From Yuukianura sp. NJ FZ-2021 (lineage: Eukaryota): 64,000 bases of DNA. The position numbers were made by a program, and so were the translations under genes. The notes below the pieces were generated by a model. That model was not told the DNA's origin. It searched no databases and was given only the letters and a program-made list of their open reading frames with translations. The first letter of the stretch is position 1, and each line of letters begins with the position of its first letter. Below are positions 6,739 to 64,000 of the stretch, one piece after another. The stretch covers positions 2,480,001 through 2,544,000 of the forward strand of contig CM102283.1 in assembly GCA_046563655.1 (NCBI GenBank). The letters are read 5' to 3'.

Positions 6739-8322
<1,584 letters not shown>

Positions 8323-15179: not shown

Positions 15180-15766
15180 GTAAGACAAAAATTTTGAAAT
15201 GAATGGAAAATTAAGGTGAAAATGAAAATTTGGATTGTCCGATGATTGAGTTTTCGTTTTTGCAAAATCGATTTTATTTTATGGAAAAGGACAAAGCAAA
15301 TCTTTGACTCAAATTTTCCTAACTTGCTGAGACAAGGTTTTCGAGGTTTGAAATTTTCTAAACGAAATTAGAGTTTTGAATTTGAAAAGCAAATAGTACT
15401 TTTTTTTAAAAAAAAAAATGGTTCAACAGTCAAGCAGTTTTAGTAAAAATCAAGAAAATTCGTAATTACAATTCAAAGAAAAGAAAAATCACAGGGTCTG
15501 AAAAAATAGACTTGTTTTTTTTTTGCTTTCAGACATTTTAAAAAATGAATTGCAATGACTTTCTGAGTTTTTCAAAATTTCTGAACCAGACTGACGTAAC
15601 ATCTCTGTTTTTCCAAACCTTATCATGTGAACTTCCGGTTATATAATGAGAGTGTCAAATTGAAAACACAAAAATACTAAAAACTGTTTAATTTTTTTCG
15701 TTTTTCAGTTCCGACTTGTCCGAGATTTTTATCGTGTCGTGTCCGGAAACCGTTGAGCACAGTGCC

Positions 15767-42700: not shown

Positions 42701-45700
42701 AGACAGGTTGAGAGGCTGCTGTGGAATACATTATTGGATTCCGTTGTCTTTGGCAGTTGTCTCTTTTTGCTGTAAACTTCCAACGATTTTCTATCAAGAT
42801 TCCTGTCTACTTCCAGCATTAAATTAGGTTATGTTAGACTAACCTAACCTAACTTTTTGCAGCTCGCTAGACCGTCTTTGCAAATATTTTTGCAGTCTGG
42901 CCTCCTAGTGAGTGTAGTAATAAATGCAAAGTCTCGAAATGGAAATTGTGTTGGTACTGCGCTGTTTAAATCCGCCGCCAGTATTATTTTTGGTTTTTAG
43001 TAACTTCCACCAGGCTGCTCCTGCTGGAGGTAAAAGTGTGAAATTCTATCATTAGAAGGCCAACTGTAAGAGCAGCATCTTCACTTTTTAGTTTTTTGGC
43101 ACCAAGATAAGTTGGACTGGCGTGTTTAGAAATCGCTGAAAAGTTTGGATGCAGATTTGGTCCAAGTTTTGTGGTGTTGTTTAGGTTAGAGTCGTGCCAG
43201 GACTGGAGGAGAGTTTAGTTTTTACAGGCAGTCTGTCATCAACCAGTGGATTAGTTGTACAAAAAATGCTAGTCTTTAAAAAAGTACTAGTCTTGGGCTA
43301 GAAAAGTGCTAGTCTTTTTGGTTTGTGAGACTGGAACTAATCTTCTAATTTGAGAAGATTAACTAAAGGTGAAGTGCTAGTCATTCATCTGAGGATCTTC
43401 TGTTGACTTTTGATTTGTGGCTGTGGATTTTGTGAAGGGGGGACAGAAGATGTGTTCCCATGGACCAGGAGTCAGTTGTGACATGCTCTATTTAGCATTC
43501 TACTCGACGAACTACGCTAATGGTATGCAGTCGTCAGTTGATCAGTCGGAAGAAGATGAGGCTCAAGTTCATGATCTCAGAGAAATTCGTGATTTCGATG
43601 AAACAGATGAAGTGAGAGAGGTCAATCGACTCCTGCGTGACGTCCTATCAGGCATGTATTCTACAGGTTTTTGAATTTTTAGAAATTTAGAATTTTGAGT
43701 TTTTGAAATTTTGAAACTTACCTCGTTTTGTTGTATACCATTTTGGGATAGGCAGGTGGAACTGGACGCTGTTTTTCGAAATATTTGTAACTTTCTGGAT
43801 ATAATTTAGAGATATCGGTGCCTTTGGGATACATTCGAGATAGTACTTGTACTTCCGGAATCCGGAATACTTTTCGAGATATGGAGATACTTTACTTTGG
43901 GGATGTTTTTCGAGATACTTTTACGAGATATACTTCCAGGAATGTCTGGGTTGAGCGACTGTCACTTTGTTAGCTGAAACGGCGACATTTGTGTTTGAAT
44001 TTGGGGATTGGGGTGACAGCTAGCGTTAGAGAGTGGAGACAAGTTGAAAACGACTGGAAGCGGTTGTTGTCGCTAGGAAGCGATTGTAGCAGCGTAGTTT
44101 TGGGTTGGTAGACAGCTTGTAGGAAAGCGACAGCCTGCTGAAGCTGGAGGAAAGAAGCCTTTTCCAGCAGACTTTTTAGACGATTTTGTAATTTGTAAGT
44201 TTTTTTGTTAAAGTTAGCATGCGCTTTCTACCCAACTTTCTCTGCTTTCTAAGCTCGTGACGGTTGTGGTGGAAAAGTAACCTTGTCCTTTTGATATTGA
44301 TTTCCCTAGCTTCACTTTTTTCCAAGTCGAATGCTCTCCAGGGATTCTGGAACTGCCTCAACCTCTGTCGTAGTCGATGTTGCTGGAAAGTTGAATAGAA
44401 AGTAGAAAATTGGAGGGAATTTTTGAATTTTGAGGTTGGGCAGAAGTTGCCTCTAATTGGTATTTCCAGCCCAATTTCTTCACGTTTATCAGAATTTTGA
44501 AGTTTTTGGAACTTTTTGCGTGCATATTAAGAACGGATGATCTTGAAATATCGTAGAGGTTGGCGAACGGCGAGAGCTAGGTGGTTAGTGTGGGTGTATA
44601 GAATTCCGGGGTCAACCAGTTCAATTCCTCCAGGGGGAGCTGGATATGGATATGTTTTTTTAGTTAACTCTTCTTTTTTACACGATTGTCGTCATCATAG
44701 TTTTTAAGTCCAAGATTCACGGCAGTTGGACACACACTGTCTGCCTGTCTGTCTTTTGGATTTGATTTATGCTCTTAGGAGTCGTAATTTACGACAGTTG
44801 TTTTCGTGTCGACATAAAGCTTTTGCTGAGTTTTCCACATTTGGACTAAAGCTGAACGGAGTAGACCAAAGTTCTGGATGAGTTCTGTGTGTAGATGCAT
44901 AACTTGAGGAAGTAAGTCGTTGTCCAGGAAAATATCAGTCGTCACTTTATCCTGGACAGCAGTGTAGCTGGACTTTGACTGTTTTTAGAAAGATTAGGTT
45001 CTATTTTTTGACAAGAGTGTGACAAAGTTATATGTTTTGTGGACATTATCTTCCAAAGATTGTATATTTTTGAGTGCAAATTCCACAGTTTTACAATTCA
45101 AAACATCATTCAGAAAATGATTTTTTTTAAAGTTTGTGAAAACGGAAAGTTTTAGTGCTGGACACAAATTATGCTAAGTTTTTGCCTTGGAATCTTCAAA
45201 TTGTTGATATTTTTTGTGGTGCTGACAATGTGTGAACCAGTGGTGCTAAAATTTTCTAAATTTTGGAAATCGGGTTAGATTTTGAGAAAAGTCATGCCTT
45301 GGCGAAATCGAAAGAGACGAGTGTACCGAATGTTCAAAACGAAACATAACAATGTGAATCGCTTTATAACTAATTTCAATTGGATTGAATTTACAGACGA
45401 CGAGGAGAATGAGATTTTAGTCAAATTTTTTAAATTCCACAAGTGCTATGACCTCATCCCAACGTCTGCCAAATTGGTTGTCTTTGACACACAACTTCTT
45501 GTCAAGAAGGCTTTCTTCGCTTTGGTCTACAATGGTAAAAGCTTAAAACATAAAACAAAGTTCTTAATTTAGATTTCATGGATTGATTTATCAATTAATT
45601 GATCTTTATTCTATTTTTATCTATAGGAGTTCGGGCAGCTCCACTTTGGGACAGTGAAGAACGGAAGATGGTTGGAATGCTCACAATCACGGACTTTATC

Positions 45701-47573
45701 CGAGTTTTGCATGCGATGTACTATGACTCGGCGGGAGCTGGAAGTAAGAAATCAGCGATACATGAATCCGGACGCTGCACGATATGATACAAATCAGCGT
45801 CTTTGCGTGCCTCGCTGCTTTTTATCAAAGGCTGAACGCTGTTTTGAAACAAGTTTTGGCTGGTTTTTTTAAAAATAGGGTTGGCTTGTTTTAAAAGTTT
45901 CTGCTTTTGCAATTTGGAGTTTCTCTCTGCCTTGGTGTTTATGTCACGCCAAGTTGCGATCAATTTATTATTTACTTGGCATGATACTATAAACTGCTAT
46001 GCTTTTTTGGTAATGCTGAGACATATGTTTGTAGTTCTTAAGTTGGAGCTAACGGCCTGCTAAAGCTTGGACAGATTTCAAATTTATTTTTAGAAAGTCA
46101 TTAAGAGAATTATTGGAGGATGAGCCAAGCTTTTGAATTTTTGACATGCGCGGAAATGTTTGTTTTGCAAAGAGCATAATGGGAGTGGAAATAAAAACTA
46201 AGTGTTTTGTTTTTGTTTTGAACAGGTAAAATGTCGGAACTGGAAGAGCATCGAGTGGAGACATGGCGGAAAAGATTTTTGCTAAACAAACAGCCGCTGA
46301 TTTCAATCGATCCGGATTCATCTTTGTATGATGCTATTTGTTCACTTGTGAGTTTAAATAATATAATAATTATTATAAATAATATGTTATACATCTAAAT
46401 TATTGATATTTTTGTGTACTTGAAGGTTAACAACAGGATACATCGGCTCCCAGTCATTGACAAGCACACGGGAAACGTTCTTCATATACTTACTCATAAG
46501 CGGATCCTCAAATTCCTTTTTCTTTATGTAAGTTTTGAATATTTTTTTCAATTTGAATTTTGACTTTGAATTTTAATGGCGGGAAACCCCGAGCAGAAAT
46601 CTGGTTTGAAGGGATGCGTGAATTTTGTTTACAATTTTTGAGAAACTTGAAAAATGTTGCGAATTTTATGAGTTTATTGCAGAAAAAAGTTGCATTTGGA
46701 TAATTTTTTTACGGTTTGTTTACAGATCCACGAAATTCCGAGACCTTCCAGTTTGAATACAAAACTTCGTGATGTAAAAATTGGAAGTTTTGAGAACATT
46801 GAGACGGCGAGAGAAGAAACTCCGATAATTGTTGCCCTTCAAAAGTTCCTGGATCGTCGAGTTTCGGCTCTGCCGATTGTAGATGATCAAAATAGACTGC
46901 TAGATATTTATGCTCGGTTTGATGTGATTAACTTGGCGGCTGAGAAAACGTACAATGACTTAGATATTTCGCTCAAGAAGGTCAGTTTTCACTGAAAATT
47001 TGGAATTTTTGAAAGTATTTGTGACATTTTGAATATGTTTTTGAAAGTTAAACTGCTTATGTTTGATTGCAGGCTAACGAGCACCGGAATGAGTGGTTCG
47101 AGGGAGTTCACAAATGTACTCTGGACGATACGCTGTTCATGATACTGGAGAAACTTGTGAAGGCCGAGGTACATCGCCTGGTCGTTGTGGACGAAGAAGA
47201 CCACGTTGTTGGAGTTATTAGCCTCTCTGATATGCTACAGGTACTTTCACATGCGAAAGTTAGGTTAAAACGTCACGTTTGTTAGATTTTTGAATTCAAT
47301 TTTTTCTGTTTTTAGTACCTGGTCATGCGACCTGAACTGAAAGAAGTGAGCGTAGTTGACATTGAGGAGTCCATTCGGCATGACAAAGAAATTTTGGAAA
47401 ACGGGAAGGCAGCCTTTATCCAGGCCGAACTGGATCAAATGAGTTATCAAACGGAGCCTAAATCAAAAACTATTTCGGATCCACTGCCACTTCTACTTTT
47501 AACTGACGAAACGAATGCGGAACGAGAGAATCCAACAATATTTGAAGAAGATGAAAAGACATGTCACGGATAA
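15767..47573 (+). CDS. SNF4Agamma: 5'-AMP-activated protein kinase gamma subunit (SNF4Agamma/PRKAG-type), long isoform ~764 aa
   Basis: Phase-consistent exons: 15767-16285, 24337-24621, 25020-25169, 29853-29892, 40086-40177, 41909-41957, 45397-45534, 45627-45743, 46226-46347, 46426-46527, 46726-46980, 47073-47240, 47316-47573. CBS-region motifs: [82 protein letters not shown]. Insect-type N-terminal motifs: RPRSKSD and [17 protein letters not shown]. The core is certain; upstream exon connectivity is inferred. Confidence 0.92.
22615..22790. repeat. Degenerate minisatellite, ~24-27 bp x 6-7 (AAAGTGGAACCTTTTTGAACAGTATG)
   Basis: GTGGAACCTTTTT core recurs at regular spacing. Confidence 0.8.
28192..28425 (+). 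CDS. Candidate alternative first coding exon of AMPK gamma (MEMKADLL...GLKEFLNR)
   Basis: GC-richer ORF from ATG 28192 ending at an AGG|GTAAAC donor in phase 0, compatible with the exon at 29853. Confidence 0.65.
29333..29417. repeat. Tandem repeat, 28 bp x 3
   Basis: AGCCAGATTTTTAAGGATTTCAAAATT repeated three times. Confidence 0.85.
32870..32950. repeat. Tandem repeat, ~33 bp x 2.5
   Basis: TATAACGTCTAG(T/C)GTTTTAG units. Confidence 0.7.
37946..38765 (+). CDS. Candidate alternative first coding exon of AMPK gamma (His/Ser/Pro-rich, 273 codons)
   Basis: Long low-complexity ORF inside the gene, ending GAT G|GTGGGT in phase 1, compatible with the exon at 40086. Confidence 0.7.
40643..41495. 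mobile_element. Non-autonomous hAT-superfamily DNA transposon (MITE), 853 bp, in an AMPK gamma intron
   Basis: Perfect 14-bp TIRs CAGGCTGGGGCAAC (40643-40656) and GTTGCCCCAGCCTG (41482-41495). Perfect 8-bp TSD GTTGTGAA (40635-40642 and 41496-41503). No transposase ORF. Confidence 0.93.
43450..43666 (+). CDS. Candidate alternative first coding exon of a short AMPK gamma isoform
   Basis: ATG at 43450 and an acidic peptide. Two phase-1 donors are possible (CAG|GCATGT after 43651, CAG|GTTTTT after 43666); both fit the core exon at 45397. Confidence 0.55.
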
Positions 47574-49206
47574 AGAAGCGGAAACAAAAAAATTGGAGAG
47601 GAAAATACAAATAGTGAAATGAAAAAGTGAAGGACTGGCAGGAGCATGGAAAGAAATGGTTTGCGTGCAAAGACTAATTAAAAATATTTATTCACCCCCT
47701 GAACCTGGGCGGAGTAAAATTGCTGAACTGCAATTAAAGGCTATAATTAAATTAATTAAATAATTTACAATTTAAAGTTATTGAAAAAGGTGTAGATACT
47801 ACGAGAGTACCTAAACACGAGAAAGCCATAGACAGAGTCACGGTTTTTTAGAAAGTCGAAGTAATAACTAACTAAAAAACGAATAGACGATAATTTTTGT
47901 TATGTAATGTAAAAACAAACTGAGTTTTTATGAACTTACTAGTACCTCAGGGGGAGTTTAGCAACTTGTGTGAATTCCGTTCTTTTTGTTGTCTTCTGAC
48001 GGAATAATGTATAATAACTAATTAAATTATGAATAATAAAATTGACTAAAATGGACTACATTAGTGAAATAATGTTAAGTTTGTTACCATGTTTTGTTCT
48101 GACTAATCAGTGTCATAATTTCAAAAATTGTTAGAATTACGAAAAATTAAAATGGACTAAAAACTAATAATTAATAGCTCTCAAGTGTTAATTTTGTTAA
48201 TTTAACTTAATTAATTAAAATGGATTCACTTTAAGGTGAAAAGTGGAGGAGGGTAGGGAGTCATGCACTTTTTGGTTTTCCGACAATAATGTGATTGAAT
48301 AGTGAAAATTGTTAACTTTTAGTGAGTGTTGTTGCACATTCGGAACTTGCATTTAAAAATTCGTGGGGTAAAAATTTTTTGTGCTAAATGTTACTATTAC
48401 TACAAAGATGTAAGAAAAAAGTGAGATGAGGGGGAAAGTTAACCAAAAAATTTATATTTAAAAATTTTTTAGTGAAATCACATCGGAGTGAAAGGAAACC
48501 TTTGAAGACTGCATGCAGAGTTCAAACAAAAAATTAATTAATTAATTAATTAATCTCAGTCGAGAAGAGTATTGAAATGTTTAGAAAAGTTAAAATATAC
48601 AAAATGTTTTAACGGAGTTAAGATTCTTTTGTTTTAAATTCTGGAAGAAACAAAAAATTTTGTGGAAGAAGTTGATGATGATGAAGGAAACTTTTGGACT
48701 CTTGGGCGATAAACCGTCAATTCTGTTTTCCATATACAAATTGTAACTTGTGGTTTTTTGATATAAGGTTTTAGTCACTTTTTCATGGTTTTGTGACCTC
48801 CGTGGTCACGGGAAGGTCAAAGGTCAAATTTTGGTGGAGGACATTTCTTAAGGGAGGAAAACTGTCTCATGTGTTAATGCCTAGAAATAAATTACTAAGA
48901 CGAAGAAATGTTTAGTAAAGGAGGATGAACACTTAACAATTGAAATTTTGCCAAAAGTGGCAATTGAATAAAAAAAAAATGCATTTCTGCAAATTTTGAT
49001 TCGTTTGTGGACGTACTTTTGTTTAATTTTTTTTTAAATCAGAATTTTAGTTGTGAAATAATTTCTGCAATCGATGGTTTTAGCATGGTAGATTTCTTTC
49101 GGAGTAAAAATTTTAAAAAAGGTAATTTTTTAAATACTCAACTTTGCAAATTAAAAAGAAAATATGGTCGCGATTGTTTTTGAAATAGTTTTGAACCAAA
49201 AAATAG

Positions 49207-49323
49207 TACCCGGGGCGGGATTTGAACCCGCGGCCCTCTGCGTATTAGCGAAGGTCTTCGGGGTTTGAACCCGAAGACCTTCCCTTGTTAAGCAGATGTG
49301 ATAACCAACTACACCACCCGAGC
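49207..49323 (-). tRNA. tRNA-Val(AAC) with a 43-nt insert/intron at position 37/38 (49243-49285)
   Basis: Exons are identical to the + strand copy. The insert lies one base 3' of the anticodon. A T-run follows the 3' end. Confidence 0.85.
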
Positions 49324-49492
49324 AGCGTTATGTATCAGCGCATAATTTGTTAAGTGTTGAACACAACTGTTGTTCAACATTCACGAAAAAAAAATTCCCG
49401 TGACGAAGTTCCAACGTGGTCACGGGAAATTTTTCCGTTGCGATTGTTTTATGTACAAGATTTTTTTGGCTAGAGCTTATACACTTAATGCT

Positions 49493-49566
49493 GCTCGGGT
49501 GGTGTAGTTGGTTATCACATCTGCTTAACACGCAGAGGGCCGCGGGTTCAAATCCCGCCCCGGGTA
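49493..49566 (+). tRNA. tRNA-Val(AAC), intronless, 74 nt
   Basis: Cloverleaf: acceptor GCTCGGG/CCCGGGT, A box TGGTGTAGTTGG, anticodon arm TCTGC-TTAACAC-GCAGA, T arm GCGGG-TTCAAAT-CCCGC, discriminator A73. Confidence 0.92.
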
Positions 49567-49569
49567 CTA

Positions 49570-49578
49570 TTTTTTTTT
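49570..49578 (+). terminator. RNA polymerase III oligo-T terminator of the intronless tRNA-Val
   Basis: T9 run 4 nt after the discriminator base, mirrored by the A6 run at 49198-49203 for the minus-strand copy. Confidence 0.8.
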
Positions 49579-60006: not shown

Positions 60007-61350
60007 TTATTCGTTAGTCGAAACGCCAAACTGTTTCTCAAATGCAGCCTTATTTTCTAGAATCCATTGTTCCAATGTCAAAATGTCTGGAAGGAATTTC
60101 CTTGCAGCATCCAAACTGCGCAGTGCACCGCACTCTTTGTGGTAATCCCGGAAATATTGCAAGATAGCAGCCAAATCATCTACAAAAAATAAAAATCAAG
60201 TGAAATTTCTTCTCTGCAATTATCACTTTATTAATTAACCAAACCTGCTCCAGGAAATGGAAGTTTAGCAAAATCCGCAGGCTCCATTGCATTGTAAACA
60301 ACAGTTTTGCCAAAATGTTTTGTGAACAATTTAGCAGCGTCGTCAAATGATATAACGTCTCCTACGGCAGCAATCGTTTGACCAATGCAACTTGGATCCT
60401 CAAATGCCTTGGCAGCCATTTTTCCAATGTCTTTTGTAGCCACCAATGGAATTCCAACATGACCCAACGAATACGTAATGGAAAATGTACCGTCGGCTTC
60501 AGGTTTTGGTCCCACTACAAGCAGTTTCATTCATAAGTCATGGAGTTGACAAAATTGGCAGTTGACAAATTTAGAAAGAGGACAAAAGTGGCAGTATTTT
60601 GAAGCTTACACAAGTCCTTGGTTGTAAGGAAATTGTCGCAAAATGCAGTAACGAGCAGAGCCGTTGTTGGAACTGTTTTGCAGACGTACGGTAGAACTTC
60701 TCCTTTTCCGTCGAATTCGGGTACAGTGTACTTGCCAAAAAGAATTGGCATTGTACCTTCCTTGACCTGGAATGACACTTCAACTTTAAAATCCAACGTT
60801 TTAAAAAATGATGAAAGTGGACTCAACACTTACAATTTTGCGTGTATCTTCCAATGTAGAAATCACAACATGCTTGAGTCCAGCGGCTGCAGCAGCATCG
60901 GCCAAGTTTTTGTTTTGCTGGATTTCATGATCGACGTCTCCTATATGTGCCCAGTAGTCTGTCACAAAGAATGCCCCTGAAAAAAAAAATGCAAGAAAAA
61001 AAATATTTTTACCGATTTTTTTCGTTTGCATTCACTTCTATCAGAAATTTCAGAGGATTTTGACCTGTTCCTTTTAAACTTTTCGGTTACACAATTTATT
61101 TTCATGTTTCATAATTACATAATTAACTCAAAGTACCGTAAGCTCCTTGGAAGGCTTTTTTCAAAGACTCCACGTCATCTGCGTCAGCTTGGACAATGTC
61201 TGGGCAGATTTTGGCGAGTTCCTTGGCTTTGTCCGAATTGACGTTGCGTGTCACTGCTCGAACGGCAAACTTGCCATTTTTCAACAATGCTCTAACGACA
61301 CCTCCACCTTGGGATCCGGTGGCTCCCAGTACAACAATTATGTCGCTCAT
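60007..61350 (-). CDS. NmrA-like family (NMRAL1/HSCARG-type atypical SDR, NADP(H)-binding) protein, copy 1, ~318 aa
   Basis: Exons 61350-61137, 60976-60834, 60766-60610, 60514-60245, 60179-60007 are phase-consistent. Motifs: GATGSQGGGV, VRAVTRN, AFQGAYGAFFVT, FDGKGEV, FPGADDLA. Confidence 0.92.
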
Positions 61351-62072: not shown

Positions 62073-63339
62073 CTACCCAGAAACGCCAAACTGTTTCTCA
62101 AATGTAGCCTTATTTTCCAAAATCCATTGTTCCAATGTCAAAACGTCCGGTAGGAATTTCCTTGCAGCATTCAAACTGCGTAATGCACAGCACTCTTTGT
62201 TGTAATCCCGAAAATATTGAAAAATAGCTGCCAAGTCATCTACAAAAAATAAAAGTCGAGTCAAACATCTACATTGCAATTATCACTCTATGAATTAAGC
62301 AAACCTGCTCCAGGAAATGGAAGTTTAGCAAAATCTTGTGGCTCCATTGCATTGTAAACAACAGTTTTGCCGAAATGTTTTGTGAACAATTTAGCAACGT
62401 CGTCAAATGATATAACGTCTCCTACGGCAGCTATTGTCTGACCAATGCAACTGGGATTCTCGAATGCTTTGGCAGCCATTTTCCCAATGTCTTTTGTAGC
62501 CACCAGCGGAATTCCAACATGACCCAAGGAATACGTAATGGAAAATGTACCGTCGGCTTCAGGCTTCGGTCCCACTACAGTTTCAAAAGTTAGTCAAGCA
62601 GTAGACAAAATTGGCAATTGACTTTGGAAACAGGACAAAATTGGCAGTATTTTGGAACCTACACGAGTCCTTGAATGTAATGAAGTTGTCGCAAAATCCA
62701 GAAACGAGCAGAGCCGTTGTTGGAACTGTTTTGCAAACATACGGTAGAACTTCTCCTTTTCCGTCGAATTCAGGCACAGTGTACTTCCCAAAAAGAATTG
62801 GCATTGTACCTTCCTTGACCTGAAATGGCACTTCAACTTCAAAATCTCACGTTTAAAAAAATTACAAAAGTGGACTCTACACTTACAATTTTGCGTGTAT
62901 CTTCCAACGTAGAAATTACAACGTGCTTGAGTCCAGCGGCTGCAGCAGCATCGGCCAAGTTTTTTGTTTGTTGGATTTCATGCTCGACGTCTCCCGCATG
63001 TTCCCAGTAGTTAGTCACAAGAAATGCCCCTGAAATTTAAAAAAAAATTATGAAAAAACACATTTTCACCGAAAAGTTTTGTTTGTCTGTATTCACTGCC
63101 TTGAAGATAAATTAACTCAGAGTACCGTAGGCTCCTTGGAAGGCTTTTTTCAAAGACTCCACGTCATCTGCGTCAGCTTGGGCAATGTCGGGGCAAATTT
63201 TGGCGAGTTCCTTGGCCTTGTCCGAATTGACGTTACGCGTCACCGCCCGCACGGCAAACTTTCCATTTTTCAACAATGCTCTAACGACACCTCCACCTTG
63301 GGATCCGGTGGCTCCCAGTACAGCAATAATGTCGTTCAT
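62073..63339 (-). CDS. NmrA-like family protein, copy 2 (tandem paralog)
   Basis: Same five-exon structure and motifs as copy 1, with open frames and intact splice sites. Confidence 0.92.
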
Positions 63340-64000
63340 TTTGCTACTGACGCTGTTTAGGATTACTCGACCGTTGCAGAGGATCCACGGTAAAATGAAT
63401 ATAAATAGCTTTTCAAGGTTAGACAACTCAAACTCATTCAACCAAAACCTTATTAAACTGGTGTTTGCATTGAAGGACGACGATCAATCTTATAACTTCT
63501 CCGAATTACTATAAACAGAAAAAGAGAGACTTGAGGCTGAGCTGAGTTTTTTGCAACCCGTCATTCTTTCGCATTCAGTTTTTAACTAACCCAAGGCTAA
63601 ACCCCACAATTATTATATTGTAAGTAACCATTTAAAAAAACAGAAAAAAGTTCAAGTTTTCTCATGTGATGGAACTTTTCCTTTATCCGGACTCAAATGA
63701 TCTTTCAAAAATTTTGAAAAAAATCAAGCTTAGGTTAACATGTTTGAAATCTTGAAGAGCTGCTTTCCTGCAACTTGCAAGTATATTTTGCTTTAATTTT
63801 AATTTTTGCGCTACATGCTCTATGGTATATGTGGATCCCAATCGAAATTTTAATAAAACTTTAAAAAATTTTATGTAAAAAAAATTTGGACAATTAACTG
63901 CACAGAAGAAGATTTCAAAAAAGTTAAAAGAGTGGAAAACTTTACATGTATGAACTTCAAAGTAAGTTTGAGGCTGTTTTACTGAACTTTTTAAATTCTC

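Follow-up and report, generated by a model that had tools for sequence, protein, structure and literature searches.

The window analysed here, a stretch of 64,000 nucleotides from a springtail genome assembly, contains two tRNA-Val(AAC) genes with the same exons, one of which is interrupted between nucleotides 37 and 38 by a 43-nt insert. We interpret this insert as a young, probably spliceable intron at the canonical position, gained by one copy of a small Val(AAC) family, an interpretation to which we give an even chance of being correct. A hairpin intron in a Val-AAC gene is unusual for an animal, and this one includes a T-arm/B-box resembling that of its host.

An interrupted tRNA-Val(AAC) gene and its intronless twin

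With introns allowed, ARAGORN identified a tRNA-Val(aac) with a 43-nt intron at 37/38, at c[49206,49323], and the Rfam tRNA model gave 51.1 bits for 49207-49323(-), against a gathering score of 29. The coordinates of the intron-type Val(AAC) gene given in a preliminary description of the sequence (49207-49323, with a 43-nt insert at 37/38) were thus exact. At the gathering threshold, Rfam returned two tRNA matches in the window, this gene and 49493-49567(+), the second of which scored 63 bits. With its default settings, ARAGORN missed the interrupted gene and called 49493-49567(+) as the sole tRNA of the 64-kb window. The two Val(AAC) genes are divergent, with 169 bp between their 5' ends. The intron-free cloverleaf of the interrupted gene (ARAGORN, introns allowed) was the cloverleaf of the twin, and all exon columns matched in a pairwise alignment, in which the sole difference was a 43-nt gap. 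ARAGORN reported the site of the insert as 'Intron Insertion Position(37-38)', in agreement with this gap. The acceptor stem of the Val(AAC) body contains two G.U wobble pairs, 1:72 and 3:70 (ARAGORN drawing).

The position 37/38 is the TSEN splice position in tRNA. Numbering the interrupted gene from G1 at 49323, the 5' exon extends over 49286-49323(-) (index 1-38, last base A37) and the 3' exon, nt 38-73, over 49207-49242(-), both delimited by ARAGORN, Rfam and the alignment with the twin. The insert occupies 49243-49285(-), according to ARAGORN and the alignment gap, with a boundary that may shift by one A. A putative A box, recognised by its consensus, was read from the sequence at 49305-49316(-) (index 8-19), and the true B box/T-arm of the gene lies at 49218-49228(-), beginning at index 96 (hand arithmetic). 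Pol III terminates at T runs: a T6 run at 49198-49203(-), three bases past the gene, is a likely terminator, and the intronless twin (49493-49567(+)) has a T9 run behind it, at 49570-49578. Within the insert, the sense strand contains no stretch of four or more T residues.

Sequencing support and age of the insert

Three DNA runs, from one sample and one study, contained the stretch (word shares of 0.35, 0.12 and 0.06). Contigs of run X1 had depth in every bin over 49170-49357, and no contig joint skipping the 43 nt was listed in any of the three runs; the stretches without cover, 49264-49498 in X2 and 49358-49451 in X3, were not treated as findings. As the three runs may derive from the assembly's own sample, they do not constitute independent support for the insert. 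An assembly or sequencing error, with the 43 nt absent from the animal's DNA, would be compatible with the occurrence of the stretch in a single sample and study, but the depth of X1 across the whole gene, the lack of an insert-skipping joint in 3/3 runs, and the structured nature of an insert placed exactly at a biologically meaningful site render such an error highly improbable.

One X3 contig joins 49325 to 49493, skipping the 167-bp spacer, with just 30 letters on one side. This joint is probably a graph artefact between the inverted 5' exons, but it could be a variant palindromic arrangement. Loose contig ends at 49491, 49493 and 49578 reveal that the sample contains more copies of the Val tRNA, with different flanks.

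The flanks of the two genes could be aligned only over about 12 nt upstream (9/12 identical, by eye), in a comparison whose spacer part is confounded by the inclusion, in each sequence, of the other's upstream region in reverse, and over CTA and the T run downstream. These unalignable flanks indicate that the gene duplication is old, though the interrupted copy has kept its two exons intact, which leaves two options, a young insert or a copy under selection. The perfect palindrome described below fits both.

The insert folds into a hairpin

The insert consists, in order, of AGG, a perfect 13-bp hairpin with a 7-nt loop, and GCTAATA. A palindrome search located the hairpin at 49250-49282(-), with the pairing (49250-49262 with 49270-49282) that had been described for it, and its loop is T-loop-like. 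Folded alone, the insert reached -27.2 kcal/mol (z -6.22), a value equalled by 0/200 shuffles. In this fold, the extra pairs A1:U39 and G2:C38 (probabilities of 0.91 and 0.99, respectively, in the whole pre-tRNA) form beyond a G.G mismatch, giving an extended hairpin at 49247-49285 with 15/16 pairs and leaving a 4-nt tail, AAUA. The insert as modelled is, therefore, a 39-nt near-palindrome followed by this tail.

The 33-mer of the hairpin was unique in the window at up to three mismatches (0/100 shuffles matched), and a blastn-short comparison of the intron with the window and with nine metagenome loci retrieved only the host T-arms (14/15) and chance words. Neither the mismatch search (≤3) nor blastn-short found a second copy of the insert in the 64-kb window. 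A 17/19 match to the intron at 15334-15352 was dismissed as an AT-rich chance match. The Rfam matches to Actino-pnp (21 bits, against a gathering score of 47.7), mascRNA (16.4 bits) and several miRNA families were rejected as sub-threshold matches to a generic hairpin.

Short perfect palindromes are abundant in the window: 35 had stems of at least 10 bp and loops of 3-20 nt, versus 1-9 in each of 20 dinucleotide shuffles, and three had stems of at least 13 bp, versus 0-2 in the 20 shuffles. Most of the palindromes in the window are AT-rich. The spacer between the two tRNA genes contains a perfect 10-bp palindrome with a 14-nt loop (49395-49428), lengthened by A/T runs (from about 49385 to 49433), and another short palindrome near 49354-49380.

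A T-arm/B-box in the insert, spaced as in an intronless gene

The B-box consensus is GGTTCRANNCC, and the intronic sequence GGTTCAAACCC at 49261-49271(-) fits it exactly. Across both strands, the 64 kb contain only three exact matches to this consensus: the T-arms of the two genes and the intronic motif. The expected number in the window was 0.67, and three matches were reached in 4/100 shuffles. The consensus appeared in 285/1,000,000 shuffles of the intron, but at the observed offset in only 6/1,000,000; for random 43-mers of window composition, the frequency was 102/1,000,000. By hand arithmetic, the intronic motif starts at 49271, gene index 53, and the B box of the twin starts at 49545, also index 53. 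This bears out the earlier proposal that the gene has two B-boxes, with the intronic one at the spacing of an intronless gene. The intronic T-arm has a stem of 5 bp closed by G53:C61, its loop conforms to the T-loop consensus, and it is identical to both host T-arms at 14/15 nt (blastn-short); the previously described difference from the host T-arm, a closing G:C replaced by T:A plus one loop base, is seen in the sequence. The T-arm/B-box in the insert is not a product of chance, and it sits in the register of an intronless gene. As far as sequence is concerned, the motif fits the B-box consensus, and its distance from the A box is workable.

Comparison of the insert with a tRNA 3' half

The preliminary description parsed the first 36 nt of the insert as 1+5+5+5+7+5+7+1, the register of a tRNA 3' half. 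The arithmetic is correct and the T-arm is tRNA-like, but the other segments do not behave as tRNA. By eye, neither the putative 3' strand of the anticodon stem nor that of the acceptor stem pairs with the host 5' exon; the two outer segments instead form a stem together, and this renders the insert a near-palindrome with an AAUA tail. The insert and the host 3' half are identical at 20/36 positions (by eye), 14 of which lie inside the 17-nt T-arm; outside the T-arm, identity falls to 6/19. The Rfam tRNA model matched the intron alone with 11.8 bits (E 2.9, model positions 32-71), whereas the true 3' exon alone, used as a control, gave only T-arm-sized matches of no more than 13.8 bits. A true 3' exon thus fares no better than the insert, and the Rfam score cannot separate a real half from a look-alike. 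For the 5' exon plus the intron, the model gave 18.1 bits (E 0.081, positions 8-63), a value that does not reach the gathering score of 29.

These results bear on the proposal that the insert arose by duplication or capture of a tRNA 3' half (nt 38-73), to which a 7-nt tail is added, and that it is one member of a family of promoter-bearing introns releasing T-arm circles. The T-arm and the register are real, the match to tRNA positions 8-63 needs no large insertion to run through the T-arm of the intron, and a ligated tRNA fragment would fit the RNA-level intron gain proposed in PMC4090602. However, the outer segments complement each other and have no 5' half here, the identity outside the T-arm is low, the insert lacks CCA and the 18.1 bits remain under the gathering score. 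The absence of a second member from metagenome, prokaryotic and viral contigs weighs in the same direction, but weakly, as springtail genomes are unlikely to be found there. We consider a captured 3' half improbable. A minihelix-like hairpin with a tRNA-Val-type T-arm as its cap describes the insert better than a tRNA 3' half does.

Predicted folding and spliceability of the pre-tRNA

The whole pre-tRNA was predicted to fold at -55.4 kcal/mol (z -5.07). The anticodon-intron (A-I) pair, or proximal pair, is a TSEN determinant. It is possible to draw the A-I pair previously proposed for this gene, U32:A(-3) (U32:A41), accompanied by an A35.C mismatch, but the predicted fold does not contain it, and its ensemble probability was 0.002. 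The competing pairs U33:A43 and A34:U42 had a probability of about 0.5, and their formation would mean that the 3' cut site no longer lies in a 3-nt bulge. With the cloverleaf enforced, the best fold was -53.7 kcal/mol; the energy rose to -50.2 kcal/mol when U32:A41 was imposed together with a 3-nt bulge (U42, A43, C38), and to -49.9 kcal/mol when U33:A40 and A34:U39 were added, a cost of 3.5-3.8 kcal/mol for the canonical proximal-pair shapes.

The proximal pair is reported to be C-G in all 16 intronic tRNAs of the fly (PMC6614914). In the fly reporters described in that study, splicing is reduced when the proximal pair is A-U or U-A, persisting at a lower level with U-A, is nearly abolished by a G-U pair, and is partly rescued by one adjacent pair; the 3-nt bulge is described as invariant, and over-tight helices as also harmful. 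The fly tricRNA reporter requires a stem of at least 8 bp (PMC6614914), and the stem of the insert is longer than this. On the basis of the predicted folds, the pre-tRNA appears to be a plausible but sub-optimal substrate for splicing.

A gene copy inactivated by insertion, or poorly spliced, would also account for several of these features. In such a history, a short palindrome, generated for example by snap-back or template-switch repair, would have landed in the anticodon loop by chance; the pre-tRNA would be a poor TSEN substrate, the intronless neighbour would supply the tRNA and the interrupted copy would be expected to decay. The near-absence of the proximal pair from the predicted ensemble is consistent with this history, as are the restriction of that pair to U-A, which lowers splicing in the fly reporters (PMC6614914), and the occurrence of the perfect palindrome only once in the window; the richness of the window in palindromes points to a palindrome-generating process in the genome, and animals are not known to keep Val-AAC introns (bioRxiv 10.1101/2025.06.17.660180). 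Nevertheless, we estimate that an insertion landing at random in a gene some 75 bp long would meet 37/38 at only about 2/75 positions, no other site in the 64-kb window offers a template for the hairpin arms, and the T-arm/B-box in native register (6/1,000,000 shuffles) is not explained by a random palindrome. The exons, terminator and proximal flanks are all intact, which also argues against a dead copy. Overall, we regard an inactivated or poorly spliced copy as less likely than a spliceable intron, but as the main alternative to it.

Searches for related sequences

We searched three contig collections in which springtail genomes are not expected. The end of the 5' exon followed, after a gap of 14-44 nt, by the start of the 3' exon was found in none of the metagenome contigs; a T-arm-plus-acceptor word from the hairpin was found in none of 185,579 prokaryotic genomes, and hairpin-derived words were found in none of the viral contigs. 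A 27-mer from the 5' exon gave 12 matches at nine loci in the metagenome contigs, and 11 of these matches were complete Val(AAC) genes (ARAGORN). The D-arm and anticodon arm are common to these genes and the window gene, but the acceptor stems and T-arms differ; there is, therefore, no orthologue among them, and they are uninformative on relatives of the window gene. Ten of the 11 genes are intronless. The remaining one, on a metagenome eukaryote contig (L008:1985-2067(+), locus GC 51.5%), is a Val(AAC) gene with a 7-nt insert at exactly 37/38 (ARAGORN i(40,7)); its insert is unrelated to that of the window gene, and its tRNA body is different. Another metagenome contig (L004:1-1171) bears four matches to the Val(AAC) 5' exon, with three complete genes, in alternating orientation within 1.2 kb, and thus represents a dense cluster of Val-AAC genes in a different eukaryote.

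Protein-coding features of the window

A COQ5 exon at 7094-7447(-) was 78% identical to its counterpart in Allacma fusca and 73% identical to those of Orchesella cincta and O. dallaii; the other named matches were at most 70% identical. From these identities, we take the host to be a springtail or an animal closely related to springtails. The top-scoring COQ5 match was a partial record labelled Diaphorina citri, with an identity of only 56%, which may be a contaminant or a repeated-domain record. AMPK-gamma-like exons are located at 45279-46995, and the Val(AAC) locus lies downstream of them. Near-identical NmrA-like exons recur about 2 kb apart, at 60231-60530(-) and 62288-62593(-), and also at 63112-63483(-), a repetition suggestive of a recent tandem duplication of the gene.

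A proposed young intron and its possible origin

Our reading of the insert as a young intron is based on its location exactly at 37/38 and on the identity of the insert-free gene with the tRNA of the 63-bit twin. An old duplication with intact exons, the lack of any run of at least four T residues inside the insert and the presence of a T6 run after the gene are consistent with this interpretation. It is also supported by a stable stem of more than 8 bp, by the drawable pairs U32:A(-3) and U33:A with a 3-nt bulge (-50.2 versus -53.7 kcal/mol), by a non-chance T-arm/B-box with 14/15 nt in common with the host, and, perhaps not independently of the assembly, by the depth of X1 together with the absence of a skipping joint. 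Counting against it are the predicted probability of the proximal pair (0.002) and the extra 3.5-3.8 kcal/mol that the canonical shapes would cost, the possibility of only a U-A proximal pair, versus C-G in 16 fly genes (PMC6614914), the essential absence of introns from other metazoan isoacceptors reported in bioRxiv 10.1101/2025.06.17.660180, and the lack of a second copy of the insert in the window or the contig collections scanned. A very young insertion would also be expected to look like a perfect palindrome, and the intactness of the exons would then be uninformative about function.

If the insert is a young intron, the following course of events can be proposed. A tRNA-Val(AAC) gene of a springtail-like hexapod would have taken up the 43-bp insert at the canonical site, probably recently, with the neighbouring gene remaining intronless. 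Pol III would use the A box, the B box displaced by 43 nt and the T6 terminator to produce a pre-tRNA of about 120 nt, and the insert would offer a second B-box-like copy at the native distance from the A box. In the transcript, the insert would fold on itself into the 15/16-bp hairpin, leaving the four-base AAUA tail. TSEN would cut after A37, measuring from the tRNA body, and before C38, probably aided by weak U32:A and U33:A pairs to the tail. RtcB would then join the exons, yielding a tRNA identical to the product of the neighbouring gene, and might circularise the 43-nt intron. We infer transcription, splicing and circularisation, together with the age of the insert and the descent of the hairpin tip from a tRNA-Val-type T-arm.

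Anticodon-loop cleavage, the addition of a foreign RNA, ligation and reverse transcription have been suggested, as a speculation, as a route of tRNA intron gain (PMC4090602). The presence of the same exons side by side and a T-arm with 14/15 nt in common with that of the host fit a recent gain in which a tRNA fragment served as the building material. For the palindromic arms, an extra step is required, such as snap-back synthesis, or an unseen donor. The excess of palindromes in the window indicates that a DNA-level palindrome-forming process is also possible. A more specific scenario is that of an intron caught in the course of being gained: a fragment with a tRNA-Val-type T-arm would have been joined into a cleaved anticodon loop, and would have persisted owing to its spliceability and to its own B box, which, at the native distance from the A box, would leave TFIIIC binding unaffected. 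The route would be either RNA-level, by RtcB-type ligation and reverse transcription, or snap-back repair synthesis, the latter of which would explain the palindrome. We put this scenario forward as a long shot.

The gain of tRNA introns in eukaryotes has been a subject of speculation only (PMC4090602), because gains have been deduced from old, homogenised families. If the insert described here is spliced, it would provide a rare young case, marked by identical-exon neighbours and an insert in which part of a tRNA can be recognised, that would allow the source and mechanism of gain to be traced, and a natural test of whether an intronic B box matters for Pol III. If it is not spliced, the gene would be an ordinary damaged copy.

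Comparison with known systems

In its shape, the hairpin can be compared with the tRNA minihelix. The acceptor-T-arm minihelix of tRNA is a 12-bp coaxial stack capped by the T-loop. The insert resembles it, in shape only, in having a continuous helix (13 bp), a 7-nt loop fitting the T-loop consensus and a G:C closing pair, and differs from it in having 13 rather than 12 bp, no CCA and no parent tRNA identifiable within the window.

Metazoan tRNA introns are reported to be prevalent in Tyr-GUA, Ile-UAU, Leu-CAA and Arg-UCU, and essentially absent elsewhere (bioRxiv 10.1101/2025.06.17.660180); the statement in the preliminary description that Val is not among the intron-carrying isoacceptors of animals agrees with this report. 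No animal Val-AAC intron is described in the accessible text of the literature on tRNA introns and Val-AAC, including PMC10275265, and a search for literature on intron-containing tRNAs in Collembola found none. Springtail genomes are reported to have only about 113-131 tRNA genes (PMC13194869, PMC8995043), and the accessible text of these two genome papers makes no mention of tRNA introns.

A Val(AAC) gene with an intron is known from the nucleomorph of Guillardia, in which a 3-nt intron lies in the T-arm (Kawach 2005, cited in PMC4090602). This case is similar to that of the window gene in that it demonstrates that the same isoacceptor can carry a protein-spliced intron in eukaryotes. It differs in that it belongs to a distant lineage with many or odd tRNA introns, and in the position and length of the intron, for which the citing account reports no T-arm-like hairpin.

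The introns of Drosophila Tyr-GUA and Leu-CAA and the tricRNAs released from them (PMC4536317, PMC6614914) resemble the insert in position and, as its size falls within the known range, in length. Other points of resemblance are a stem-forming intron, a 3-nt bulge that can be drawn at the 3' site and a metazoan host, to which the RtcB ligase would apply. The springtail gene is unlike the Drosophila genes in being a Val-AAC isoacceptor and in having a U-A rather than a C-G proximal pair, which is, moreover, missing from the predicted fold. It also differs in that its insert bears a copy of the T-arm/B-box, and in that only one of two adjacent identical genes is interrupted.

Recent gains have been proposed for tRNA-Ala(UGC) of Lachancea thermotolerans and tRNA-Gly(UCC) of Kluyveromyces lactis, in a review according to which families mixing intron-bearing and intronless genes are usually of different origins (PMC4090602). 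As may be the case for the window gene, isodecoders that are intronless in related yeasts bear an intron at the canonical position in one lineage, the gain being inferred from its distribution rather than observed. The springtail gene is distinguished from these yeast genes by its animal host, by the presence of both gene forms, with the same exons, side by side, and by an intron that itself hints at a tRNA source.
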